Assembly (NCBI GenBank): GCA_946487895.1 | Contig: CAMLUO010000004.1 | Location: forward strand, 9,990-73,989 | Source: an uncultured Clostridium sp. | Lineage (GTDB): Bacteria; Bacillota; Clostridia; TANB77; CAG-508 | Length of the DNA stretch: 64,000 nucleotides | Direction of reading: 5' to 3' | In this document: piece after piece, positions 4,067-62,453 of the stretch | Layout of the letters: each line of letters begins with the position of its first letter | Position numbering within the stretch: position 1 is the first letter of the stretch | Program-made: the position numbers and the translations under genes | The notes under the pieces: generated by a model | Database searches by the model: none | What the model was told of the DNA's origin: nothing | Seen by the model: only the letters and a program-made list of their open reading frames with translations

Positions 4067-7000
4067 ATGAAAAGTAAAATAATGAAAATAGTTACCATTA
4101 TGTTACTAATAATGACTTTAACAATGACAAATTTCATATTTGTAGGTTCAAGTCTTATTAGTTATGCAGCAAGTGGAGTCGAAACAAACCATAGAAACAT
4201 CGACTTTGATGCATACTTTGTAAATTCAAACAATCAAAAAATATCTTCAGTTGATATGTCAAATCAGGGAGATATTTATTTAAACATGCAAATCGAAGTT
4301 AAAAATGAAGGATATTTCAATGGTAAAATTACAGTAAATGATAGTAATTTTACTTTAGCAGATACAGACAGCAGCTATGTAAATAAAATTGAAGGAAATA
4401 CAATAACTTTAAATCAAATAAATGCAGGTACAAGAACAGAAATTAGAATAAAAGTAGAATTAAATAAAGATGAAATCTTCAACCTAGACAACTTAGCAAA
4501 AACTAGCAAGATTGGACTAGAAGGAAAATATTATGATAGTACTGAAAGAGACATTAATATTGAAGCTGAAAGAGAATTAGAATTAAGTCTAGTTGAAAAC
4601 TATACATCTGATAATATTTCTGATGATATTCAAATAATTACAAATAAAATAACTCAAGTAGATGGAAAAAACAAAAGAGTTATTCAATTATTATGGAATG
4701 TTGGATTAAAAGAAAACAATTATCCAATGAAAGAATTAGAAGCAAGTATAACAGTACCAACTATAGATGGAAAAAGAGCAGAAGTTTCAAGAGTAGTAGA
4801 CTTTAATGAAATGACATATTATGATTACACATATAATGGATCAGATGTAACATTTAAATTTACAAATGAACCAAATGAAGATAACGAAATTCGTTGGAAA
4901 TTAGACGGAAATGAAAAAATAATATTAACATTTGTTTATGATACAGAAGTAGCAGTAAGTAGCCAAGAATTAGTAGCAAGACAAACAGTAAAATTATATG
5001 ATGATAAAGAATTATCATATATGCAAAATGTTATTATTGACAATCAAGAAAAAGATGGTATTGTAGCAATCGAATCAATTCCAGAACAAGAAAAAATGTA
5101 TAAAGGAAATTTATATGCAGGCTTAGAAAAAGAATATGCAGTAGATACAAAATTAGATATTAATTTTGCAAAAGCAATCACTAATAATATTGAAATAGAA
5201 GAAACATCAAACAGAAGTACATTAAGTGATATATATACAAGAACAGTTATATCAAAAGAACAATTTAATGAACTTTTTGGACAAACAGGTGGAATTACAG
5301 TATATGATGAAAATAATCAAATTATAGGAAGAATTACAAATTCAAGTCATGCAGATGAAAATGGAAATATAGTAATTTCATATAATACTGAACCAACAGC
5401 AATAAGATTAGAAACAACAGCACCAGTTGCAGAAGGAACGTTAGAAATCAAAAATTATAAAAAACTTGTACCTAATACTTCAAGTAACATAGCAGAATTA
5501 ACACAAGTTGGATATACAGCAAAAGTTAGTTATGATAATCAAGAAATAGGACAAGTAACAAATAATATTACATTAGAAGAAACAACAACACAAAGTAAAT
5601 TTGAAGTAGATAAAAACACTTTATCCACAGTAGTAGAAAATTCTGTGGAAATGAGAGCAACATTATTAACAAATAATGAAAAATATGATTTATATCAAAA
5701 TCCTACATTTAGATTTGAACTACCAGAACAAGTACAAAACATTGAAATTACAGGAGTAGAACTTTTATATGAAAATGAACTAAGTGTAGCAAATTATACT
5801 GTAGATGGAAGAACTATTGTAGTTACATTACAAGGAAAACAAACAAGTTATAAAGAAACATCAGTCGAAGGTGCAGTATTAGTGGTAAATGCCAATATAA
5901 CTTTAGATAATAGAACTGCAACAACTGATACAAATATAACTATGTATTATGAAAATGAAAATGCTCATTCATATAAAGATGGAGCAAATATAGGAACTGA
6001 AACACAAGCAATAAAAATAGTTGCTCCAAAAGATTTAACAGTAACTAATAATATACCAACAATATCTTTAGAAACAAAAGGACAAGATGAAAATACAAGT
6101 GTAAATTTAATAACAGGAAATGTACCAAAACAATTAGAAATTCAATCTGAAATAATAAACACAACAGAAAGTACAATGAATAATGTAAGAATTCTAGGAA
6201 CATTACCAACAAATAGTGGAGAAAACAATCTAGGAATTTTAGTTACAAATCCAATACAAATATTAAATGAAGTAGATGTAACAATTTATTATACAGGAAA
6301 TGAAAACGCTACAAATGATTTAAACAGCAGAGACAATGGATGGAGTACAGAATTTACACAAGATGCTAAAAGATATTTAATAGTAGCAGAACAATTAAAT
6401 ACAGGAGCAAGTATTGAAATTTCATATTCAATACAAATTCCAGAAACATTAGAATACAATAAACAAGCAAAAGAATATTATAGTGTAAGTTATGTAAGTT
6501 CTGAAACATCAGTAGAAAATACATTGAATTCTTCTACAATTACTTTAGAAACAGGAATTGGACCAAAAATAGAAGCAAGTTTATCTGCAACAATTGGGGG
6601 ACAAGAAATTACACAAAATGTTAAAAATGGAGAAGTAATTCAATATAGAATACAAGTATCAAATACAGGATCAGAAACAATAGACAGTGTTGAAGTTGTA
6701 GGACAAGTTCCAGAAGGTACTACAATGGTTGTACCAGAAGAAGATTATGAATATACAGGAGCTTCATATTATGAAGAATTACCAGATAGAGAATATAGAA
6801 CAACAGCCCAAAATATTGAACCAGGTGAAGTAAGAACATTTACATATGAAGTAAGAGTTAATTCAGATACACCTGAAGGAACTAGATTACAAAACACATT
6901 ACAAATTACATATAATGGAGTGACATCAGAAACAGAGACACATACATTAACAACAGAAAAAGGAAATTTAAGAGTTACAGTAAAAAGAGTAACTGATAGC

Positions 7001-13023: not shown

Positions 13024-13140
13024 ATCCAAAAAATGTTGTAATAAATTTGTAAAGAAAATTTTAAAAAGTAGTAATAAATCGATAAGAATATTATCCGTAG
13101 TAGTTTAGGGAATAATTGAGATATTAAGCTATAAAGATAG

Positions 13141-25591: not shown

Positions 25592-25777
25592 AGCCAAGCT
25601 ATTATATAAAATTTTATTTATTACTCGGCTAACATTACATCATTAAGAAAATTTAAAATTACCCAATAGGCACCTCTCAAAGCGAGTTTGAGATTCTCCT
25701 ATTGGGTAATTTAATATTTTCTAGAATGATTTCATTTGCATTCGTAATTTCATAAAATTTTATATAATAGCTTGGCT
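25592..25777. repeat. 186-nt nested palindromic element E2 (26-nt perfect outer arms, 15-nt inner arms, conserved core)
   Basis: agccaagctattatataaaattttat (25592-25617) is the exact reverse complement of 25752-25777. Inner arms aaattacccaatagg (25656-25670) / cctattgggtaattt (25698-25712). Apical hairpin tctcaaa-gcgag-tttgaga. Followed by TTTTT, 8 nt after the B2 stop, so it probably also terminates cassette 2. Confidence 0.9.
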
Positions 25778-33300: not shown

Positions 33301-35723
33301 AAAGAGAAATGCCAGACTTATCTGTAGTAAAAGATATAGAGAGTGCAACAGTAAGTATAGTTGGAACACAACACGTATATAAATATGGAGACAGATTTAA
33401 TCCAGATTTATGGGCAGAAAATAGTAACGGAGTAAGTGGACATGAATTAGATCCACAAGTGAAATTCGAGGAAAAATATGCAGAAATGTCATATTCAAGA
33501 GCACTATATGCATCAGATGTGTACTATACAGGAGATCAAGGAGATCCATTATCAGTATATCTAACATATAAGATAGGAGTAAGAAATAATTCAACAGGAC
33601 TAAATGCAGTTATTTACGAATTAGATGATTACTTTGATGCAAAATACAATTTAATAGCAATAGGAACAGATATAAATGCTGATGGAAGTATAAAATCAGG
33701 AACACAAATTACTAACTATACATCACCAACAAATGTAAATAGTGAGTATAAGAAAATGACAATAGGAGGAAGCAACAGGGCAATATTTGAACTAAGTCCA
33801 TTAGAAGAAAAATATATTTATGTACAACTACAAGTAAATAGAAGTGATATTATACAAATTGTAGAAAATAGCGACAGTGAAAATTCTAAATTAGATAATA
33901 TTACAGAAATCAAAAAATATGGAATGACAAAAACAAACGAGAATGGTGTAAAAGAGGTATATGCCGGAATTGACAAAGATTCACAACCGGGAAATACAGA
34001 CATCAATGATAGAACAACATGGGAAGATGATACAGACAAGGCACCAGGAATGTTATTAGTATTACAACAATCAAGAGAAGTAAATGGAAAAGTATTCTTA
34101 GACACAGATGAGAATCCACTAGATGATGGACAACAAGTACATACTGCAGTTGCAAGACAAGGAAATGGACAATATGATGATGATGAAAAAGGAATAGAAA
34201 ATGTAAAAGTAACATTAGTAGACCAAGATGGAAATATAGCTCAGGTATATAATGAATCAAGTAAACAATATGAAGATGCAGTAACATATACAAATGAAAA
34301 TGGAGAATATACACTTGATGGATTTATACCAGGAGAATATGAAGTACAATACACTTGGGGCGGAAATGTTGATGGTGCAGGACTAAATTCAACATATACT
34401 CTAGATAGTGGAGAAGAAGAAATTGTTAATGTACAAAACTATAAGAGTACAGTAGTAGATGAAGATGTATGGAATGCAAAAGGAACAAATGAAAAATGGT
34501 ATAATGATAACTTCAAGAGAAATTATCCAGGACTAGAGTGGAATAATTCATCTAATACAGAAATTAGAGCATCAGATGCAGTAGATGATTATGATACAAG
34601 ACTTGCAATAGATTCAGAAACAGGGGAAATAACATATAGTGAAAAACAAAAACTTGAAAATACATATGACTCTACTTCAACAGAAGAAAAATATACAAAT
34701 ACACAAATGAATTCTAATACACAAAACTTCACAGTATATTTAGAATATGGAGATACAGCAGATGGCATAACAAATGCAGGGGGTAATACAACAAATTATA
34801 GTGAAGACACAGTAAATAGAATCAATAGTGTTGACTTTGGAATAATAGAAAGGGCAAGACAAGTATTACAATTAAATAAACATATAACAGCAGCAAGAAT
34901 TACACTTGCAAATGGAAATGTATTAGTAAATGCAAAATTAGAAGATGGACAATTAGTAGATCAGGCACAATATGTTGTAGTAACACCATCTTCACCAGGA
35001 GCAAATGGAATGGTAAGAATAGAAGTAGACCAAGAAATTATACAAAGTGCAACAGTAGAGATAGAATACGGTTTAGAAATAACAAACATAAGTGAATTAG
35101 AATATCAAACAGAAGAGTTCTATATGTATGGAGCAGGAAATGGAGAAGACGGAAGTAAATTAGTAACATTACAACCTGGACTAATAATAGATTACTTAGA
35201 TAATAATTTAGCAACAGATATGAGCGAAAATGCTGTATGGGACTCAATAGCACAAGAGAATAGAAAATCACAGTTAATAGATACAGGACTATTATCAGAA
35301 AGCCTAGAAGATATTTTATCAGGAACAAGTAGAGTAATAACAACAGATGATGCAGCAGATCAAGTGTTAGTTCCATTAGGAATAGAAATTGCTGGAATGA
35401 ATAATACATCAAGTATAGAAGTTGCATTAAGTGGATATAAATTATTGTCTAATACAGGAGATGAAACATTCCTAGAAAATAATGCGGAAATAATTAGAGT
35501 AATCAAGAATAATGGTGGAGGAACATTAATAACAACACCAGGAAACTATAATCCAAGCGATTCAAGCACATCAGAGTTGGACAACTCAACATCAGAAAGC
35601 TTAGTAATATTACCACCAACAGGATTAACAACAAATTATGTTGCATATATCTTATTAGCAATAAGTTCACTAGGAATACTAGTTGCAGGAATAATCCTAA
35701 TCAGGAAATATGTGATTAAATAG
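30363..35723 (+). CDS. Giant surface protein B3 (1786 aa), paralog of B1/B2 with inserted ricin-type lectin and a second SpaA-type domain; canonical LPPTG signal
   Basis: ATG 3 nt after A3 stop, with SD aaaggagg inside the last A3 codons. SpaA-type GELEIIKQDKDTGAVLNNVGFVLYN...GTYDIYETKNPNYGYQ and GNMRIKKVDATNSSAMAGISFKIKN...DTYQVVETSLGDNYYGYE. SdrD-B-like ISGYVWEDIAWDDGKNQD.... GIDKDSQPG...TWEDDTD. C-terminus VILPPTGL + hydrophobic stretch + IRKYVIK. Confidence 0.9.
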   Translation: MTKKIKNIAILIISFIMFVLIGLCDKEALAIKKGDIVYLTANSTKTMNEYNLASGSSNFFCIQEGQPLDANTKFTVTRYEPIKGDNEVDYRMCWIAYQQNTDSKPEGANGIGTEPSYSVKQRAIYGYFPTWATKHGWKDIDINSGGQYSPGWEEESLKQWKNWEKAKNANIKNNKTVTSLKKELYNYNGQSYIKIGPFNFTYSGANPNVVFDITNQNGTKMSALYGVYDGGTLKISSGFQAENYSNTDFYLFIRTDSNATSINLKVTLTDNRWDYTGDVYLLESDIEVIVDEVGKKTQNVIYTTSEFTRETTTDNVEMRNIPLTGELEIIKQDKDTGAVLNNVGFVLYNAQTKQYVASTSSNGIAKYTSNRSEAKEFITGVDGSSGKVTVKGLIAGTYDIYETKNPNYGYQVSKDTKVASVTVNPGSASSGTVNDSQRTIADGYYEIESALKSNMVVDLASGKTIDSTNVQLYTRNNSAAQQFYVQYVGKGYYVIRSAAAYNKVLDVQSGSTDSGANVQIYTSNDTDAQRWAIRDAGNGYYYIVNKGGGKYLDVQGAHTDNGTNIQVYNGNRSNSQKFKFNSKNTTETSKITISNTKQTGNMRIKKVDATNSSAMAGISFKIKNSAGQYIIAVDSSGRTQSRVTGTIHLGSMQTTTNVNSATEFVTNSNGIIEIYNMKVDTYQVVETSLGDNYYGYELESSYISWSSNKGSGTGATSSIYINRQTSSNTSASASGKYDLLTVKNRRKYVKISGYVWEDIAWDDGKNQDANQLYQAINDDKNDKLLNNIVVRLKDSNGSTVQEVRTNSSGKYTLNNVLIDNLGRYYIEFSYNGMAYESVDIINISNNRGTKAIEGDNRTSFNGEFAQITTGQSNNSSGTKTNDIRYNTEDYKSVIDYEGTYQYGYDASQVNYMTPDEYRTYYPVNGVASKYLISSSTYNAYRSVGRSGYLSDIISADSIRQNGTTEIGTTFTSGINLGLKKREMPDLSVVKDIESATVSIVGTQHVYKYGDRFNPDLWAENSNGVSGHELDPQVKFEEKYAEMSYSRALYASDVYYTGDQGDPLSVYLTYKIGVRNNSTGLNAVIYELDDYFDAKYNLIAIGTDINADGSIKSGTQITNYTSPTNVNSEYKKMTIGGSNRAIFELSPLEEKYIYVQLQVNRSDIIQIVENSDSENSKLDNITEIKKYGMTKTNENGVKEVYAGIDKDSQPGNTDINDRTTWEDDTDKAPGMLLVLQQSREVNGKVFLDTDENPLDDGQQVHTAVARQGNGQYDDDEKGIENVKVTLVDQDGNIAQVYNESSKQYEDAVTYTNENGEYTLDGFIPGEYEVQYTWGGNVDGAGLNSTYTLDSGEEEIVNVQNYKSTVVDEDVWNAKGTNEKWYNDNFKRNYPGLEWNNSSNTEIRASDAVDDYDTRLAIDSETGEITYSEKQKLENTYDSTSTEEKYTNTQMNSNTQNFTVYLEYGDTADGITNAGGNTTNYSEDTVNRINSVDFGIIERARQVLQLNKHITAARITLANGNVLVNAKLEDGQLVDQAQYVVVTPSSPGANGMVRIEVDQEIIQSATVEIEYGLEITNISELEYQTEEFYMYGAGNGEDGSKLVTLQPGLIIDYLDNNLATDMSENAVWDSIAQENRKSQLIDTGLLSESLEDILSGTSRVITTDDAADQVLVPLGIEIAGMNNTSSIEVALSGYKLLSNTGDETFLENNAEIIRVIKNNGGGTLITTPGNYNPSDSSTSELDNSTSESLVILPPTGLTTNYVAYILLAISSLGILVAGIILIRKYVIK
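31686..32105 (+). other. Ricin-type beta-trefoil lectin domain within B3
   Basis: Three pseudo-repeats with QxW-type motifs: NVQLYTRNNSAAQQFYV, NVQIYTSNDTDAQRWAI, NIQVYNGNRSNSQKFKF, each preceded by [LV]D[VL]xxG. Absent from B1 and B2. Confidence 0.85.
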
Positions 35724-35970: not shown

Positions 35971-38418
35971 ATGTTTCAAAATATGGATGGAAATGCAATA
36001 AATGTAAATGAAGGAAAAAAAGAAGTAAAAAGCGGAGTAAATATTTTTTCAAATGTATTTACAAAGAAAAATATATTAATATATATAGTATCATTATTAG
36101 TATCATTAGTAAGTATAGGATGGGACTTTTCAGTATTTAGTATTAGTTTGTTGGGGGCGTGTTTAAGTTCATCTGTACCTGTACTTGGAATTGTACTAAT
36201 TTCATTAGTAGGAAATGGTATTAAATTTGGAGTAGGAGGGGCATTAGAATACTTTTTAACAACATTAGTTCTAGTAGTATCTCTTTTCATATTTAAGCCA
36301 AGATATAACGAAAATGAAAGAAATGAAAAAATAAGAATAGGAAAAAATATATTTTTAGCAACAATCATAATACAAATTGCAAAATATGCAATTTCAGGAT
36401 TTACACTTTATGATATATTATCAGGAATTACGGTAGCAATAATTGCAATGGTATTTTATAAAATATTTGTAAATTCTATTGTAGTGTTGCAAGACTTCAG
36501 ACAAAAAAAGGCATTTTCAATCGAAGAATTAATGGGAGCAAGTTTGTTACTTGCAATTTCCGTAGGAGCATTTGGAGATTTTAACGTAGTAGGATTTAAT
36601 ATTAGAAATATCTTAAGTATATTTATAGTAATGGCATTAGGATGGAAAAATGGAATTCTAGTTGGGACAACCTCTGGAGTAACAATAGGAGTTACTTTAG
36701 GAGTAATAACAGGTTCAGAGCCAATCATGATAGCAGCATATGCAATATCAGGAATGCTTGCAGGAATATTTAATAAGCTAGGAAAAATTGGAGTAATAAT
36801 AGGATTTGCACTAGGAAATGTATTACTTGCATATGTTTCAAATGGATATACTGTAGAACTAATATATTTTAAAGAAATATTAGCAGCATCAATTGGATTA
36901 CTTTTATTACCAAAAAATTTCCAAATAGATTTAGAAGAATTTATAGGAAATTCAAAATTTTTACCAGTCACACCAAATGGAGCATTAAATAAAAGTAAAG
37001 AAGTTGCAGAAAATTTAACACATGTATCAGATGCAATAAAAGAAATGGCAACATCATATAAAGGAAACATTAAAGATGCAAGTGATGTAGAAATAAATGA
37101 AAAAAATCAAGAAATATTTATGACTGAATTATTAAATAATCTAGAGCCATATAAAGAAAATATGTTATATGATGACATAGCAAATCCAGAAAGTGAAATT
37201 ACAAAAAAGATTTTTGAGTATCTATTAGATAAACAAGAAATAGACAGAAAAGCATTGTTACAAATATTTGCAGATTGTAATAGTTATGTTGTAGGATTTG
37301 AGGACAAAGAGGTTAGTCAATATTTAGAAGATAATATTTCTCAAATGATTACATTAATAAATATTTCATATAAAGTTAGCAAAAATGACTTTATATGGAG
37401 AAAAAAGATAGAACAAAACCAAAAAAATATAGGAAATCAATTAACAGCAATGTCAAAAGCCATTGAAAAAATGGCAAAAGGAATGAAACAAGAAATACAA
37501 GAAGAAGCAAACGGAAAAAATGAAAATTATCAAAAAGAAACAATAGAAATAACAGAACTTTTAAAACAAAAAGATATACAAGTAGAAGAAATATCAATAC
37601 AAAAACAAGATAGATTTTTTGTTACAATATATGCAAAAGAGATATTAGAAACAGCAAAGATAGAATTAATTGAAAAGCTATTAACAAAGAGTTTAGAAGA
37701 AAAAATAGTATTAAATGACGAAACAAGTGTTGGAACAAAATACACATTTTTATCAGATGATAAATTTGAAATGGCAATTGGAAATAGTATGGCGACAAAA
37801 TCAAAAAGTGAAGTATCAGGAGATAGTATATTAAATATAAGACTAAAAGATGGAAAATACTTAGTTGCAATAAGTGACGGAATGGGAACAGGAAATCAAG
37901 CTAAAAAAAGCAGTACACAAGCATTAAAAATGCTAGAAAATTTACTATTATCAGGATTTGATAAAAAAACATCATTAGACTTAATAAACTCATCATTAAT
38001 AAATCAAGATAATGAAGTATTTGCAACATTAGATATAGCAATTGTGGATCTATATAAAGGAAATATAGAATTTATCAAAAGTGGAGCATGTCCAACATAC
38101 ATAAAAAACAATAAAAGAGTACAAATAATAAAAGCAAACTCATTACCAACAGGAATAATCGAAAAAGGAAATATACAAACATTTGACTATGACATAAACT
38201 CAGGAGACATTTTATTGATGTGTACAGACGGAATATTAGATGCAAACATAGAATACAAAAATAAAGATTTATGGTTAAAATACTTATTAGAAGACATAGA
38301 AACAACAAATACAGGAAAAATAGCAGACTTAATATTAAATGAAGCAATAGACAACAACTTTGGAGTAATAAAAGATGACATGAGCATAATAGTATGTAAA
38401 TTTAAGAAGAGGGATTAG
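35971..38418 (+). CDS. spoIIE: Stage II sporulation protein E (PP2C phosphatase with polytopic membrane domain)
   Basis: About 10 N-terminal hydrophobic helices, then a C-terminal PP2C/SpoIIE domain (AISDGMGTGNQAKKSS...FATLDIAIVDLYKGNIEFIKSGACPTYI...LLMCTDGILDA). Start set to ATG 35971 (SD agaggtgg 6 nt upstream) rather than the track GTG 35962, which lies in the SD. Confidence 0.9.
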   Translation: MFQNMDGNAINVNEGKKEVKSGVNIFSNVFTKKNILIYIVSLLVSLVSIGWDFSVFSISLLGACLSSSVPVLGIVLISLVGNGIKFGVGGALEYFLTTLVLVVSLFIFKPRYNENERNEKIRIGKNIFLATIIIQIAKYAISGFTLYDILSGITVAIIAMVFYKIFVNSIVVLQDFRQKKAFSIEELMGASLLLAISVGAFGDFNVVGFNIRNILSIFIVMALGWKNGILVGTTSGVTIGVTLGVITGSEPIMIAAYAISGMLAGIFNKLGKIGVIIGFALGNVLLAYVSNGYTVELIYFKEILAASIGLLLLPKNFQIDLEEFIGNSKFLPVTPNGALNKSKEVAENLTHVSDAIKEMATSYKGNIKDASDVEINEKNQEIFMTELLNNLEPYKENMLYDDIANPESEITKKIFEYLLDKQEIDRKALLQIFADCNSYVVGFEDKEVSQYLEDNISQMITLINISYKVSKNDFIWRKKIEQNQKNIGNQLTAMSKAIEKMAKGMKQEIQEEANGKNENYQKETIEITELLKQKDIQVEEISIQKQDRFFVTIYAKEILETAKIELIEKLLTKSLEEKIVLNDETSVGTKYTFLSDDKFEMAIGNSMATKSKSEVSGDSILNIRLKDGKYLVAISDGMGTGNQAKKSSTQALKMLENLLLSGFDKKTSLDLINSSLINQDNEVFATLDIAIVDLYKGNIEFIKSGACPTYIKNNKRVQIIKANSLPTGIIEKGNIQTFDYDINSGDILLMCTDGILDANIEYKNKDLWLKYLLEDIETTNTGKIADLILNEAIDNNFGVIKDDMSIIVCKFKKRD

Positions 38419-38466
38419 GGGGACGGTCCTAAAAATCCCTCTTTTTAGGGATTTAGGGACGGACCT
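38412..38466 (+). repeat. GGGAC-pair repeat R1 at the spoIIE 3' end
   Basis: ggattagggggacggtcc taaaaatccctctttttagggattt agggacggacc: two GGAT(T)TAGGG(GG)ACGG units around the hairpin aaatccct/agggattt. The spoIIE stop TAG (38416-38418) is part of unit 1. Near-identical copy at 52580-52630. Confidence 0.85.
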
Positions 38467-38560
38467 TCAAATTTTTTATTTTACTTATTAGACTGTTTTT
38501 ATTTTTATATCAAAAAATAAAAATATAAAACCAAAAGTTATTTTTATATATAAAAATAAC

Positions 38561-42791: not shown

Positions 42792-43154
42792 ATGCAGATA
42801 ACTTGTGGAACAGATATAATTGAAATAAATCGAATTAAGAAAAGTATAGAAGAATTAGGCGAAAAATTTCTAAATCGAGTTTATACACAAAAAGAAATCG
42901 AATATTGTGAAAGCAAGAAAGGTCAAAAATATCAGCATTATGCTGCAAGATTTGCTGCAAAAGAGGCGATATTTAAAGCAATTTCAAAAGAATTAAATGA
43001 TAAGTATGAAATAGGTTGGAAAGACATGGAGATTTTAAATGATAAGCAAGGAAGGCCACAAGTTAAAGTCAAGGGAGTTCAAAAGGAAAATATAGATATT
43101 AGTATCTCGCATTGTAAGGAGTATGCTGTAGCAATGGTAGTAATGTCCATTTAG
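42792..43154 (+). CDS. acpS: Holo-[acyl-carrier-protein] synthase
   Basis: MQITCGTDIIEINRIKK...YAARFAAKEAIFKA...ISISHCKEYAVAMVV is the AcpS/4'-phosphopantetheinyl transferase signature. ATG 42792 is preceded by SD aagaaggag. Confidence 0.9.
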   Translation: MQITCGTDIIEINRIKKSIEELGEKFLNRVYTQKEIEYCESKKGQKYQHYAARFAAKEAIFKAISKELNDKYEIGWKDMEILNDKQGRPQVKVKGVQKENIDISISHCKEYAVAMVVMSI

Positions 43155-43193
43155 GGACGTTTCCGTTTGGACATTTTTGTCCTTTTAGGGACA
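43152..43193 (+). repeat. GGGAC-pair repeat R2 at the acpS 3' end
   Basis: tagggacgtttccgtttggacatttttgtccttttagggaca: two TTTAGGGAC units around the hairpin ggaca/tgtcc. The acpS stop TAG is the first 3 nt. Confidence 0.75.
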
Positions 43194-43221
43194 CATCATC
43201 ATGAAATAAAAATAAAGGAGA

Positions 43222-47668: not shown

Positions 47669-48439
47669 ATGAAACTAATATCATGGAATGTAAATGGAAT
47701 AAGAGCATGTGTAAATAAAGGATTCAAAGAATTCTTTAAAGAAATAGATGCAGACATATTTTGTATACAAGAAACAAAATGTCAAGAAGGGCAAATAGAA
47801 TTAGAATTTGAAGGGTATAAAAGTTTTTGGAATAGTGCTGAAAGAAAAGGATACTCAGGAACAGCAATCTTCACAAAAATAAATCCATTATCAGTTAGAT
47901 ATGGAATAGGAATTGAAGAACATGATAAAGAAGGAAGAGTTATAACACTTGAATTCGAAGATTTTTATATGGTAAACATCTATACACCAAACTCAAAAAG
48001 AGAATTAGAGAGACTAGATTATAGACAAATATGGGAAGATGAAATAAGAAAATATTTATTAAAGTTAAATGAAACAAAGCCAGTAATAATGTGTGGAGAC
48101 TTAAATGTGGCACATGAAGAAATAGACTTAAAAAATCCAAAAACAAATAGAGGAAATGCAGGATTTACAGATGAAGAAAGAGCAAAGATGACAGAACTAT
48201 TAAATGCAGGATTTGTAGATAGTTTTCGCTATCTATATCCAGATAAAGAAGAACAATATAGTTGGTGGTCATATATGGGAAAAGCAAGAGAAAAAAATGT
48301 AGGATGGAGAATTGACTATTTTATAGTATCAAAAGATATAAAGGACAGAATAAAAGAAGCAACAATTTATCCAGAAGTGATGGGAAGTGACCATTGCCCA
48401 GTAGGACTTGTGGTTAGTTTGGGGACAGGTTCGGACTGA
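47669..48439 (+). CDS. xth: Exodeoxyribonuclease III (ExoA/Xth family AP endonuclease)
   Basis: [30 protein letters not shown]...R..N.GWRIDY, GSDHCPV motifs. Confidence 0.93.
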
Positions 48440-48465
48440 CCATTTTTGGATAGTTTAGGGACGGC
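48411..48465 (+). repeat. GGGAC-pair repeat R3 overlapping the xth 3' end
   Basis: tggttagtttggggacagg ttcggactgaccattt ttggatagtttagggacggc. Unit 1 lies inside the last 9 codons of xth. Close copy at 60499-60570. Confidence 0.8.
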
Positions 48466-48498
48466 ACTTTTGTACAAAAAAGAAAGGAATGAAGTTTA

Positions 48499-50763: not shown

Positions 50764-52575
50764 TTGAAAAACGGTATTAAAACTTTAGCAATGTGGTTAA
50801 TAATAGGGGTAATATTCATAGTAGTCTTATCTTCAATTGTAGAAAACAGTGAATCAAAACTACAATATTCTGAATTAATTACAAATATTAATGCAGGAAA
50901 TGTAGAGTCAATTCAAATAAATTCAGATGGAACAACAGCTACAGTTGAATTAAAAGATGATAGAATAAGAAAAGAAGTTAATATTCCAGATATGGGAAGT
51001 TTCATGAGTTATGTAGAAGAATTCTTAAAAGATGGAGCATTTTCTTTAGAAGAAGAATCTCAATCAATATTTATAACAGTACTTAGCTTATTAACACCAT
51101 TTGGATTATTAATAATCTTCTTAATATTCTGGTTCTTCATGATGGGAGGAACAGCAGGAAGTGGAAATCCAGGAAGTAAAACAATGACATTTGGAAAAAG
51201 CAAAGCCAGAATGATGACACCTGCTGATAAAAATAAAATTACATTTGATGATGTAGCAGGAGTAGATGAAGAAAAAGAAGAACTAGAAGAAATAGTACAA
51301 TTCTTAAAAAATCCAAAGAAATTTACAGATATGGGAGCTAGAATTCCAAAAGGAGTTTTATTAGTAGGTCAACCAGGAACAGGTAAAACACTTTTAGCAA
51401 AAGCAGTAGCAGGAGAAGCAGGAGTACCATTCTTCATAATAAGTGGTTCAGACTTTGTTGAAATGTTTGTTGGTGTTGGAGCATCAAGAGTAAGAGACTT
51501 ATTTGATCAAGCTAAGAAAAATGCACCATGTATCATATTCATAGATGAAATTGATGCAGTAGGACGTCAAAGAGGAGCAGGACTTGGTGGAGGACATGAT
51601 GAAAGAGAACAAACATTAAACCAATTATTAGTTGAAATGGATGGATTTGCAGCAAATGAAGGAGTTATAGTATTAGCTGCAACAAACAGACCAGATGTAT
51701 TAGATAAAGCGTTACTTAGAGCAGGAAGATTTGATAGACAAATAGTAGTAGGATTACCAGATGTAAAAGCAAGAGAACAAATATTAGAAGTACATTCAAG
51801 AAAGAAAAGATTAGCTGATGATGTAGACTTGAAAGTCATAGCTAAAAACACATCAGGATTTGCAGGAGCAGATTTAGAGAACATATTAAATGAAGCAGCA
51901 TTACTTGCAGCAAGAAGAAACCTAAATGAAATTGGAATGAGAGAAATCGAAGATGCAATGATAAAAGTAACAATGGGACCTGAAAAGAAAACAAAAGTAA
52001 GAAGTGAAAAAGAAAATAAATTAGTTGCATATCATGAAGCAGGTCATGCAGTAGTAAGCCATTACTTAGAAACACAAGACCCAGTACATGAAATATCAAT
52101 AGTACCAAGAGGAATGGCTGGTGGATATACAATGTATAGACCAACAGAAGATAAATCGTTCATGTCAAAAACAGAAATGGAAGAAAATATCGTATCACTA
52201 TTAGGTGGTAGAGTTGCAGAAGCCCTAATATTAAATGATATATCAACAGGAGCAAGTAATGACATAGAAAGAGCAACAAAAATTGCAAGAAGTATGGTTA
52301 CAAAATACGGAATGAGTGAAAAAATCGGAGCATTAATGTTAGGTTCTAGTCAAGAAGAAGTATTTTTAGGAAGAGACTTTGGTCATACTAAAGAATATTC
52401 AGAAGAAACAGCAGCAGTAATAGATGAAGAAACAAAGAGAATAGTAGATACTGGATATAACAGAGCAAAACAAATACTATCAGACAATATAGACAAACTA
52501 CACCAAGTTGCAGGAATATTACTAGAAAAAGAAAAAATCAATGCAGACGAATTCGAAGCAATTTTTGGAGAATAG
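50764..52575 (+). CDS. ftsH: ATP-dependent zinc metalloprotease FtsH
   Basis: TTG start with SD aaggagg. Walker A GQPGTGKT, Walker [12 protein letters not shown], zinc motif HEAGHAV. Confidence 0.97.
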
Positions 52576-52630
52576 GGACTAGGGGGACGGTCCTAAAAAT
52601 CCCTGCTTTTAGGGATTTAGGGACGGACCT
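52573..52630 (+). repeat. GGGAC repeat R4 at the ftsH 3' end (three units)
   Basis: tagggac tagggggacggtcctaaaaatccctgcttttagggatttagggacggacc. The ftsH stop TAG is the first 3 nt. 52580-52630 is nearly identical to R1. Confidence 0.85.
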
Positions 52631-52763
52631 TAAATTCTTCTTGTTAGGATTGATGGATAGTCTTAAAAATAAAAGGAAAGTAGCAAAAATATATTGCTAT
52701 TTTCTTTTTTTTGCGATAAAATGAAAACACCACAGAGAAAAAAGGAAGAAGTAGGGAATAGCA

Positions 52764-56865: not shown

Positions 56866-57030
56866 ATGTTAGATGATGAAATTTGTAAATTAAGAGATAA
56901 ATTGAATAAAAGTATAGAGAATGGAGAAGATTATAGTGTAATTTATCAATTGAGCATAGAATTGGACGAGCTTATAGCAGAATACTATGCTAAAAATAAT
57001 AAAAAAAAACTGCTATGGGCGGTAACATAG
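56866..57030 (+). CDS. Spo0E-family aspartyl-phosphate phosphatase-like protein (54 aa, absent from the ORF track)
   Basis: Own translation: MLDDEICKLRDKLNKSIENGEDYSVIYQLSIELDELIAEYYAKNNKKKLLWAVT. The block S.ELD.LI..YY and the N-terminal I..LR..L match the Spo0E family. SD aaggagag upstream. Confidence 0.7.
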   Translation: MLDDEICKLRDKLNKSIENGEDYSVIYQLSIELDELIAEYYAKNNKKKLLWAVT

Positions 57031-57077: not shown

Positions 57078-57115
57078 GGTGTGTACCTACTATCTATTTA
57101 GGGGGGGTTACCCAC

Positions 57116-60498: not shown

Positions 60499-60570
60499 TT
60501 TGGTCATTGTGGTCACTTTGGGGACAGGTTCGGAGTGACCATTTTTGGTTAGTTTGGGGACGCCACTTTT
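60499..60570 (+). repeat. GGGAC-pair repeat R5 after the helicase gene
   Basis: ttggtcattgtggtcactttggggacaggttcggagtgaccatttttggttagtttggggacgccac. Same unit-spacer-unit structure as R3. Hairpin tggtcac/gtgacca. Begins 2 nt after the stop. Confidence 0.8.
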
Positions 60571-60596
60571 TAAAGTTGTTTTTATGGAACTAGGTA

Positions 60597-60645: not shown

Positions 60646-61056
60646 ATGAGAAAAAATGGATATCAAAAATTTGAAGAAGGAGAAATTTTAAAAAGAGCTA
60701 AAGAATTACATTTGAATTTAATTGATAGTATAGATAGTTATAATAAAATGCCAAAAGAAGATTTAGAGAAAAGGATAGAAGCACTAAAAAAGGTTATACA
60801 ATGTTTTGAAGATTTAATGGAAGAAGCGATTTATGTAGATGAGAATGCTTATGCTAAATTTAAAGATAAACTAAACTATTTAGAATTTAGAAAAGACTAT
60901 ATTAAAAAGTATGGACTAGAAGAATATGATATTAAGGAAGTTAGGAGAGAAGCGGAAGAGAGAAAAAAGAAAGATGAACAAATGATGAAAGAAAATCATG
61001 CAGAAATAGCTAAAAGGCATCAAAATAATAGAGGAGAAAATGGAGAAGAAAGATGA
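60646..61056 (+). CDS. Hypothetical K/E-rich coiled-coil protein
   Basis: Start set to ATG 60646 (SD aaaggtg 8 nt upstream). Its stop overlaps the trmFO ATG (ATGA). No family recognised. Confidence 0.55.
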   Translation: MRKNGYQKFEEGEILKRAKELHLNLIDSIDSYNKMPKEDLEKRIEALKKVIQCFEDLMEEAIYVDENAYAKFKDKLNYLEFRKDYIKKYGLEEYDIKEVRREAEERKKKDEQMMKENHAEIAKRHQNNRGENGEER

Positions 61057-62453
61057 AGGAGTATATCACAATAATAGGTGGAGGATTAGCTGGATGTGAG
61101 GCAGCATACCAAGTTGCAAAAAGAGGAATAAAAGTAAAACTTTATGAAATGAAACCTAAAAAATTTTCACCTGCACATAGTAATAAAGATTTAGCTGAAA
61201 TAGTTTGTAGTAATTCTTTTAAATCTAATTTATTAACAAATGCGTGCGGATTATTAAAAGAAGAATTGAGAAGATTAGATTCTCTATTGATAAAAATTGC
61301 AGATGAAACGGGTGTGCCAGCAGGACAAGCCTTAGCAGTGGATAGAGAAGAATTTTCTCATAAAGTTACTGAGACAATAAAAAATAATGAATTAATCGAA
61401 ATTATAAATGAAGAAGTAACAGATATTGAAGATATAGCTGAAGAAGGAATTGTTATAATTGCAACAGGTCCATTAACATCTGATGGACTAGCAAAACAAA
61501 TTCAAGAAATAACTGGACAAGACAAGTTGTATTTTTATGATGCAGCAGCTCCAATAGTTTCAAAAGATAGTATTGATTTTGATATAGCATTTTACGGAGA
61601 TAGATATAACCAAGAAAAAAAGAAAGAAGAACCAGTTGAGCAGTGGAAGAAAAGAATAGAAAAACAAGAAAGAGAAGAGCAGAGTTATATTAATTTGCCA
61701 ATGTCAAAAGAAGAGTATGAAAGATTTTGGCAAGAACTTGTAAATGCAGAAGTAGTGACATTACATGAATTTGAAAAAAGAGAAATATTTGAAGGATGTA
61801 TGCCAATAGAAATCATGGCAAAAAGAGGAATAGATACATTGAGATTTGGACCATTAAAACCGGTAGGATTTGATGATCCAAGAACTGCAAAAAGACCATA
61901 TGCTTTAGTACAACTAAGACAAGATGATAAACAAGCAAGTATATATAATCTAGTAGGATTTCAAACAAATTTGAAATATGGAGAGCAAAAAAGAGTATTT
62001 AGCATGATACCTGGATTAGAAAACGCAGAATTTGTTAAATATGGTGTAATGCACAGAAACACATATATAAATTCAAGTAAATTATTAGATGAAACATATA
62101 ATTTAAAAACTAATAAAAATATATATTTTGCAGGACAAATAACAGGAGTAGAGGGATATGTTGAATCAATTTCGTCTGGTTTAGTTGCAGGAATAAATGC
62201 AGTTAGCAGATGGCAAGATTTTGGAAAACGAGGATTTGGGGACGGAGAAAAAAATCATGACATAGTTTTTTCAGAATTTACAGTAATAGGAGCTTTAGCT
62301 AAATACATTTCTACATCTAATGAAAAATTTCAACCAATGAATGCAAATTTTGGAATATTACCAGAATTAGAAGGCAAGAAGATAAGAGATAAAAAAGAAA
62401 GGTATATGAAATTAGCAGAAAGAAGTTTAGAAAATTTGAATACAAATATTTAG
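61053..62453 (+). CDS. trmFO: Methylenetetrahydrofolate--tRNA-(uracil54-C5)-methyltransferase TrmFO (Gid)
   Basis: FAD-binding IIGGGLAGCEAAYQ, SNSFKS, ATGPLTS, GQITGVEGYVES motifs. Two lineage-specific insertions noted in findings. Confidence 0.92.
   Translation: MKEYITIIGGGLAGCEAAYQVAKRGIKVKLYEMKPKKFSPAHSNKDLAEIVCSNSFKSNLLTNACGLLKEELRRLDSLLIKIADETGVPAGQALAVDREEFSHKVTETIKNNELIEIINEEVTDIEDIAEEGIVIIATGPLTSDGLAKQIQEITGQDKLYFYDAAAPIVSKDSIDFDIAFYGDRYNQEKKKEEPVEQWKKRIEKQEREEQSYINLPMSKEEYERFWQELVNAEVVTLHEFEKREIFEGCMPIEIMAKRGIDTLRFGPLKPVGFDDPRTAKRPYALVQLRQDDKQASIYNLVGFQTNLKYGEQKRVFSMIPGLENAEFVKYGVMHRNTYINSSKLLDETYNLKTNKNIYFAGQITGVEGYVESISSGLVAGINAVSRWQDFGKRGFGDGEKNHDIVFSEFTVIGALAKYISTSNEKFQPMNANFGILPELEGKKIRDKKERYMKLAERSLENLNTNI

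Follow-up and report, generated by a model that had tools for sequence, protein, structure and literature searches.

Why do five unrelated genes of one bacterium end in the same short GC-rich sequence? The question is raised by a 64,000-nucleotide stretch of DNA from an uncultured Clostridium sp. (contig CAMLUO010000004.1; the whole stretch is called the window below), in which a preliminary description had reported GC-rich elements with paired GGGAC units at the 3' ends of spoIIE, acpS, xth, ftsH and a Snf2 helicase gene. We consider it likely that these elements are dispersed DNA hairpin repeats of the REP (repetitive extragenic palindrome) kind, whose cognate enzyme, an HUH-Y1 transposase of the REP-associated tyrosine transposase (RAYT) or TIRYT type, is encoded elsewhere in the genome.

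The window has a G+C content of 28% and a strong positive GC skew, and nearly all its genes are on the + strand. Its closest relatives are metagenome-assembled genomes of uncultured Clostridia, and the DNA runs that contain it come chiefly from chicken and other gut metagenomes. Stretches of DNA from relatives that were compared with the window carry L-numbers (L001-L191 and further). All five reported elements are present, with coordinates right to within a few bases, and NCBIfam gives the five genes as SpoIIE, AcpS, exodeoxyribonuclease III, FtsH and Snf2 helicase, in agreement with the names proposed. TAGGGAC occurs exactly six times, at these five loci and nowhere else in the window, as had been counted by eye.

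TAGGGAC alone is not significantly enriched in the window (6 found, 2.6 expected; six or more in 6 of 100 shuffles), and TTTRGGGAC alone is not clearly over chance. Enrichment of a single motif was rejected as the signal, and only the paired pattern stands out. GGGAC-N28-32-GGGAC, with a spacing of 34-36 nucleotides, is found five times against 0.03 expected, and none of 100 shuffles reaches five. In the comparison with a compositional null model, which the preliminary description had suggested, the paired motif is thus far above expectation. No match was obtained in the window with Rfam at gathering score; a search of two relatives by E-value returned chance microRNA hits only.

All five copies have a common layout. 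An arm of 7-8 nucleotides, X1, is followed by (TTT)RGGGAC and about nine more nucleotides, by X', which is the reverse complement of X1, and by T4-5. In the second half come X2, which repeats X, another (TTT)RGGGAC and a type-specific tail of five bases. The window holds three sequence types, A at the spoIIE and ftsH ends, B at the xth and Snf2 ends and C at the acpS end, with the arms AGGGATT, TGGTYAS and ATGTCCA, respectively, and with X' altered to match each. In the list below, hairpin 1 is the hairpin formed by X1 and X'.

38408..38467, + strand: A-type element at the spoIIE end; hairpin 1 of -16.5 kcal/mol, then UUUU; X1 AGGGATT (38410-16), GGGAC (38420-24) plus GGTCC, X' AATCCCT (38434-40), T-run (38442-46), X2 AGGGATT (38447-53), second GGGAC (38456-60), tail GGACC (38461-65); the spoIIE stop TAG (38416-18) lies within the element.
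43142..43197, + strand: C-type element at the acpS end; hairpin 1 of -12.5 kcal/mol, then UUUUU; X1 AATGTCCA (43142-49), GGGAC (43154-58) plus GTTTCC, X' TGGACATT (43168-75), T-run, X2 TGTCC (43178-82), second GGGAC (43188-92), tail ACATC (43193-97); the acpS stop TAG (43152-54) belongs to TTTAGGGAC.
48410..48471, + strand: B-type element at the xth end; hairpin 1 (48410-48443) of -16.5 kcal/mol with arm GTGGTTAGTTTGGG, loop GACAGG and arm TTCGGACTGACCAT, then TTTTT; X2 TGGATAG (48447-53), second GGGAC (48458-62), tail GGCAC; the xth stop TGA (48437-39) lies within the element, which supplants the final codons of xth (ancestral ...GLEIDL*).
52573..52631, + strand: A-type element at the ftsH end; hairpin 1 of -11.0 kcal/mol; X1 (T)AGGGACT (52573-80), GGGAC (52584-88) plus GGTCC, X' AATCCCT (52598-604), spacer GCTTTT, X2 AGGGATT (52611-17), second GGGAC (52620-24), tail GGACC (52625-29); the ftsH stop TAG (52573-75) is the first three bases of (T)AGGGACT.
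60501..60571, + strand: B-type element after the Snf2 helicase gene; hairpin 1 (60509-60542) of -18.7 kcal/mol with arm GTGGTCACTTTGGG, loop GACAGG and arm TTCGGAGTGACCAT, then TTTTT; an extra X-like arm TGGTCAT (60501-07), X2 TGGTTAG (60546-52), second GGGAC (60557-61), tail GCCAC; the helicase stop TAA (60495-97) is 11 nucleotides upstream of the element.

Hairpin 1 has two tiers. The lower stem, X1:X', of 7-9 bp, defines the subfamily, and the upper part, GGGA-CGK-TYCY, is conserved; the conserved motif after X1 in the elements reads GGGGAC(G)GTYC. Hairpin 1, the T-run and a half-copy (X2, GGGAC and tail) form the version found in this lineage, a three-arm head-to-tail '1.5-mer' with its two GGGACs 34-36 nucleotides apart. 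When the second half is included in the fold, X' can pair with X2 in place of X1. The tail of the second unit is consistently unlike that of the first (GTTTCC in the first versus ACATC in the second, GGTCC versus GGACC). The short hairpin that had been placed between the units is present as pairing, with the refinement that three arms take part and that X' pairs with either neighbour. The third unit counted at ftsH falls away, as the first TAGGGAC there is the arm X1 (AGGGACT, a variant of AGGGATT).

Two further sites that had been proposed as relics, 13101-13112 and 57098-57113, lack both the complementary arm and the partner and were not accepted. The second is a G7 stretch without element features, not far from an ordinary hairpin terminator 3' of a small open reading frame (ORF) at 56867-57010 (MLDDEICKLRDKLNKSIENGEDY...), which we take to be Spo0E-like. 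A different sequence, TTTGGGGACGGAG at 62235-62260, lies inside a 466-residue ORF (61053-62453). Its only flanking complement is a weak one of 5 bp (GATTT/AAATC), and it may be a chance occurrence or a decayed intragenic copy.

The same elements are abundant in the relatives. In a scan with one genome per species, the exact 21-nucleotide core of the A-type was found, among the matches listed, in more than 111 stretches from about ten related genomes, on both strands. Over 876 kb of relatives' DNA, the distances between GGGACs on the same strand concentrate at 36 (110 cases), 34 (31) and 35 nucleotides (7); the other clusters are minor, at 28 (10) and 8 nucleotides (9), with almost nothing else. 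In the window and L001-L191 together we counted 210 doubles, and in 193 of 209 both the X1:X' and the X':X2 pairing are possible with at least 5 bp. The arm pairs vary and stay complementary, e.g. AGGGATT/AATCCCT, TGGTCAG/CTGACCA, TGGTCAC/GTGACCA, ATGTCCA/TGGACAT and ATGTCTCA/TGAGACAT, among others, and in further subfamilies with other arms X' and X2 match every time.

Practically every B- or C-type element is a head-to-tail 1.5-mer. A-type elements occur in four arrangements: head-to-tail doubles, solo hairpins, perfect inverted dimers between convergent genes and outward-facing hairpin pairs, with 93 direct against 24 inverted pairs. The six-nucleotide spacer between X' and X2 of the A-type is present in both orientations (44 A-rich and 41 T-rich among 93 doubles of the window and L001-L191) and flips even at the orthologous ftsH end, where it is GCTTTT in the window, AAAAAC in L005 and L106 and AAAAAT in L067. 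This suggests frequent small inversions of the hairpin loop.

A transposase was found by searching the genes between inverted elements. At L032 (3286-4086) a protein of 266 residues has the motifs HVHLV and YIHQNP, matches Pfam Y1_Tnp with 56.7 bits (cut-off 23) and has the REP-associated tyrosine transposase as its best NCBIfam model, 63.5 bits compared with 21.9 for the IS200 model. Two inverted C-type doubles flank its gene: the upstream gene has one of them on its stop codon, and the other overlaps the start of radA. Orthologues lie at the same chromosomal place in L058 (69% identity), where inverted C-type doubles also flank the gene, and in L105 (57%). A second transposase, at L111, is 38% identical according to tblastn, has the motifs HAHIL and YIHQNP, and has inverted A-type doubles on both sides. 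RAYT-type Y1 genes flanked by inverted copies of the elements themselves back the comparison with REPs and bacterial interspersed mosaic elements (BIMEs) that had been drawn from the window alone. The transposases are 259-266 residues long with a conserved C-terminal ...LxRVLGIxKKxxERxMK; for a C-terminal helix-turn-helix (HTH), Pfam gives only a faint, non-significant match to HTH_19 (E = 0.16). The top PDB match of a profile of four such proteins is E. coli TnpA-REP (4ER8), with both catalytic motifs aligned; a PDB search with a single transposase sequence gave no match.

The alignment of the four proteins led to 80 homologous loci with 33-65% identity, from Clostridia, Negativicutes, Syntrophomonas, Peptococcaceae, Lachnospiraceae and Lentibacillus, and from a few Bacteroidota, Treponema and Acidobacteriota assemblies. 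At the 76 loci with enough flank we determined the best inverted repeat between the 700 nucleotides upstream and downstream of the gene. It contains GGGAC in 59 of the 76 loci (mostly Bacillota) and usually has the form of a variable stem enclosing GGGGACGGTTCT, GGGGACGGGGTT or GGGGACGTTTC. These repeats lie at most about 280 nucleotides from the transposase gene, mostly within 150. Because unequal loop lengths misregister the 3' arms in an ungapped alignment, a formal covariation count was replaced by stem enrichment over shuffles: stems of at least 6 bp surround 52% of the flank GGGACs, compared with 17% in shuffled sequence and 23% at farther GGGACs of the same loci. There are dozens of distinct stem sequences, with perfect complementarity retained, and the upper hairpin part GGGA-CGK-TYCY is kept throughout the whole transposase clade. 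The first unit of the window elements is thus the hairpin cognate to this clade of transposases; the extra half-copy characterises the gut clade (L192-L197 and the relatives of the window).

Two observations concern the neighbours of these transposases. The inverted C-type element 3' of the gene (L032 4131-4190, also in L058 and L105) overlaps the radA start codon (...GCGACATGGCAAAAAG); radA at these three loci has no obvious Shine-Dalgarno sequence, and the sole purine-rich stretch, AAGGAAAC, is in the hairpin loop. At L111, the transposase gene is separated from the inverted A-type element downstream by an ORF of 216 residues (4854-5504), which gave no significant family match and may be a passenger or partner gene.

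The proposed preference for gene ends was examined by tabulating the distance to the stop codon, with genes in the relatives called by a simple longest-ORF rule. Where the gene on the X1 side is co-oriented (98 doubles), the edge of X1 lies in 78 cases between -23 and +11 nucleotides from the end of the stop codon, and in most of these 78 the stop is inside the element. The window agrees, as the stop is inside the element at four of five loci (spoIIE, acpS, xth, ftsH), the fifth being Snf2. When X1 faces the start of a gene on the opposite strand, 16 of 35 elements sit 14-22 nucleotides from the start codon, against its ribosome-binding site. The end opposite X1 has a slack of 12-570 nucleotides to its neighbour, and only 11 of 149 elements lie between divergent genes. 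In unidirectional contexts 101 of 138 elements (73%) are oriented with the flanking genes and the remaining 27% are antisense to both neighbours. Between lagging-strand genes the orientation matches the genes in 10 of 13 elements, and it thus tracks transcription and not replication. An IS608-like replication-strand bias was rejected for the same reason, as orientation follows the genes rather than the G-rich strand, albeit with only these 13 elements between lagging-strand genes.

Comparison of orthologous gene ends, for which 80 syntenic loci were gathered via the protein adjoining xth, shows turnover. The closest clade has many doubles (2-7 per 13-21 kb), and most relatives at 65-70% identity have few or none. 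The 3' end of xth is found in the following states.

Distant relatives: ancestral end, ...DHCPVGLEIDL*.
Window clade: B-type element within the last codons, final Xth residues altered.
L115: own stop retained, a solo B unit immediately 3' of it.
L116: solo hairpin only.
L120: C-type element.
L129: B-like element with the second unit inverted.

Another gene end carries an A-type element in L054 and a B-type in L101. At 35711-35723 the window lacks an element that L070 carries directly after the TAG, one of a further subfamily (D-type), and L115 is empty at a site where four relatives carry an A-type. Partial states are also found: in L176 a lone X-TTTGGGAC-ACATC stands at the site of a complete double in L126, and the ftsH end of L117 retains just TAGGGATTAGG, the remnant of an internal deletion. 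Different subfamilies have reached the same gene ends independently, and the presence and absence of elements at orthologous ends supports the suggestion, made for the window, of a mobile element.

At the RNA level the elements resemble terminators. Folded as nascent RNA up to the T-run, hairpin 1 has -11 to -18.7 kcal/mol in the five window copies and is followed by U4-5 in each; a simple terminator scan picks up the xth copy. The spacers of B- and C-type elements are T-rich in 50 of 52 cases. Co-transcribed with the upstream gene, hairpin 1 and its U-run are predicted to act as an intrinsic terminator or as a 3'-protective hairpin. Contigs of a chicken-gut metatranscriptome (a run kept as assembled contigs) start at 38411, where the first A-type element starts, and at 52602, inside the second; these contig ends reflect breaks of the assembly at the repeats.

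Among known systems, the REP, BIME and REPIN repeats with their RAYTs (the REPtrons of E. coli and Pseudomonas) are likewise short GC-rich hairpins of high copy number, mostly extragenic and near the 3' ends of ORFs (PMC3733652, PMC6006769). They also fall into several subfamilies, with an HUH-Y1 transposase gene for each between inverted copies of the repeat, and occur as singles, inverted dimers and clusters. REPs have been described within 20 bp of ORF 3' ends, often supplying a TAG stop (PMC3733652). Unlike in the described REPtrons, the host here is a Gram-positive spore-former of 28% GC and the transposase, of about 260 residues, has a C-terminal extension. Some RAYT-like genes, the 'TIRYTs', are flanked by inverted repeats, many of them with the common sequence GGGGWSAS (Di Nocera et al. 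2013, PMC3733652). TIRYTs, or TIRtrons, share with this system the non-GTAG inverted repeats around the gene and long proteins with a C-terminal extension, and some TIRYT genomes have moderately abundant repeats in singles, dimers and clusters, as here. GGGGACAG (B-type) and GGGACAC forms fit GGGGWSAS and GGGGACGG resembles it; the commonest forms here, GGGGACGG and GGGGACGT, depart from it at position 7. The elements may well be of the TIRYT class, for which the published accounts name no Firmicutes example (PMC3733652). Most TIRYTs fall in subclass 2.1, with long proteins and a C-terminal HTH-like domain (Quentin et al. 2018, PMC6006769), and the published counterparts are probably TnpA-Y1 subclass 2.1 and RAYT Group 1. 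Quentin et al. found no REP-like structures beside subclass 2.1 genes (PMC6006769), and the matching Group 1, reported in Clostridia, had flanking 16-mers of only about 12 copies (Bertels et al. 2017, PMC5581495), whereas the repeat here is a clear hairpin with covarying stems and is very abundant, at about one per 4-13 kb. No description of REP/RAYT repeats in Clostridia was found in the literature searched. The system is a Gram-positive counterpart of the E. coli REPs and BIMEs, differently built: REP-like and RAYT-linked, of unusual architecture, and in a host group for which that literature describes no such systems.

Several observations weigh against this assignment. The RAYT score of 63.5 bits is under the curated NCBIfam cut-off of 80, the profile match to 4ER8 is weak (E = 0.014), and there is no Y1 transposase gene within the window. 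The elements have no unpaired 5' GTAG/CGTC tag such as REPs have; instead GGGGAC(G)GTYC tops the hairpin and the lower stem varies. In place of the inverted doublet of REPs, the head-to-tail three-arm 1.5-mer dominates, and head-to-tail arrangement is rare among described REP families (PMC3733652). Comparisons of empty and filled sites gave no target-site duplication or clean target-site signature, and no conserved sequence or target was found 5' of X1; without either, selection at gene ends and targeting to them are indistinguishable. As for the role in termination, which is a prediction, half of the A-type doubles of relatives have an A-rich and not a T-rich spacer (44 versus 41).

The terminator-like shape raises the question whether the elements are ordinary intrinsic terminators that evolved in place and were made alike by convergence or gene conversion without a transposase. 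All five window copies have, like terminators, a stable hairpin and U4-5 immediately 3' of the stop, and the hit of the terminator scan at xth, the T-rich spacers of B- and C-type elements and the 73% orientation with the genes all fit this. However, intrinsic terminators are not a near-identical repeat family with an extra downstream half-copy and a link to a transposase. More than 100 copies have the exact 21-nucleotide core, inverted repeats with GGGAC flank Y1 genes at 59 of 76 loci in distant taxa, 27% of copies are antisense to both neighbours, half of the A-type doubles have no T-run, coding sequence is overwritten, and the second half-copy has no role in termination. We find this explanation very unlikely, and the same holds, to a like degree, for cis-regulatory RNA elements of the 3' untranslated region, acting through an RNA-binding protein or a ribosome-dependent switch between X1:X' and X':X2 and linked to the transposase only incidentally. 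Such a switch would agree with the two exclusive folds possible in 193 of 209 copies, with an orientation that follows transcription, and with a stop within or beside X1, so that a terminating ribosome would cover that arm. But X2 is downstream of the U-run and hence cannot affect the decision to terminate, a quarter of the copies are antisense to their neighbours, and Rfam gave no match. Lineage-specific abundance and absence at the orthologous sites of close relatives would be unexpected for a conserved regulator of housekeeping genes.

A somewhat less remote explanation, still an unlikely one, is that the elements are miniature derivatives of true insertion sequences (IS), either palindrome-associated transposable elements ('PATEs') of the IS200/IS605 type or miniature inverted-repeat transposable elements (MITEs) of a DDE transposon, moved by an active multicopy IS and not by a single-copy domesticated RAYT. 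The enzyme family has the same Y1 fold, and IS200/IS605 ends and PATEs share the recognition of a folded single-stranded hairpin with a short conserved sequence on both sides; GGGAC...GGGAC around one hairpin resembles their pair of left and right cleavage sites. The single unit of L176, compared with the double of L126, is what excision of a 34-nucleotide unit 3' of GGGAC would leave, although recombination between two direct repeats explains it equally. The transposase, however, scores far higher as a RAYT than as IS200, and its gene seems to be single-copy and syntenic; three genomes have it in one chromosomal position, at 57-69% identity, suggesting vertical inheritance. The hairpins on its two sides are inverted and not direct as in IS200/IS605, there is no target-site duplication, and no conserved target tetra- or pentanucleotide is found 5' of X1. 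A DDE-transposon MITE in particular would have terminal inverted repeats and a target-site duplication; here the two GGGAC units are direct, not inverted, and empty and filled sites show no duplication. tRNA-like structures, CRISPR-like repeats, integron attC sites, type III antitoxin repeats and a BsmFI (GGGAC) site were also considered, and their layout or context does not fit.

For REP-like repeats with a RAYT/TIRYT-type transposase, a mechanism can be drawn by analogy with the biochemistry of TnpA-REP and IS608. RAYTs have been shown to bind hairpins folded from single-stranded DNA, in which bases of the loop can be indispensable (Corneloup et al., PMC8266576). The transposase would bind the folded hairpin on single-stranded DNA, probably via the conserved upper part, and would cut and rejoin nearby, so that copies spread or are reshuffled. 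Hairpin 1 with its U-run, co-transcribed with the upstream gene, may then end or protect the mRNA, judging from its predicted fold. With a terminator-like hairpin the element could supplant the last codons, stop and terminator of a gene harmlessly, which would explain its persistence at gene ends. A bolder proposal is offered only tentatively: the largest RAYT group (Group 1/subclass 2.1) may have its missing cognate repeats in the hairpins with GGGGACGGTTCT at the top, and in the gut clade these hairpins would have evolved into three-arm head-to-tail portable gene-end cassettes (a few codons, a stop and a terminator hairpin) that repeatedly overwrite the 3' ends of essential genes (ftsH, xth, acpS, spoIIE).

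Other features of the window were noted on the way. A palindromic module of about 180 bp at 25594-25775, also present in L028 (2400-2625) and L076 (6240-6450), is bounded by inverted repeats (CCAAGCTATTATATAAAATTTTAT...) and contains a central hairpin and two promoter-like sequences that face inward; it has no Rfam match. It recurs at unrelated sites in relatives, there between outward-facing A-type hairpins, and may be a small-RNA/antisense pair or a MITE. That the A-type hairpins are the terminal repeats of a MITE of about 220 bp was rejected, as the same module is present in the window without hairpins and the flanking hairpins, which face outward, are the ends of two neighbouring convergent genes. 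Seven giant ORFs of 988-1786 residues stand in tandem on the + strand (4067-35723), the last with a faint match to a lectin domain. They probably encode cell-surface proteins, and none of them has a GGGAC element at its end.

REP/RAYT systems have, to our knowledge, been studied almost solely in Proteobacteria. A low-GC Gram-positive lineage with dense repeats, several subfamilies and a transposase for each is a natural test system. The conserved hairpin part, common to homologous loci, offers a direct route to the recognition target of the RAYT group that is largest and least understood. For the annotation of such genomes, the repeats break metagenome assemblies at gene ends and change predicted C-termini, as in Xth, whose last residues are here encoded by the element. 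The three-arm layout and the overwriting of gene ends raise the question of how these elements choose, or survive at, stop codons, and also that of ready-made terminators in very AT-rich genomes.

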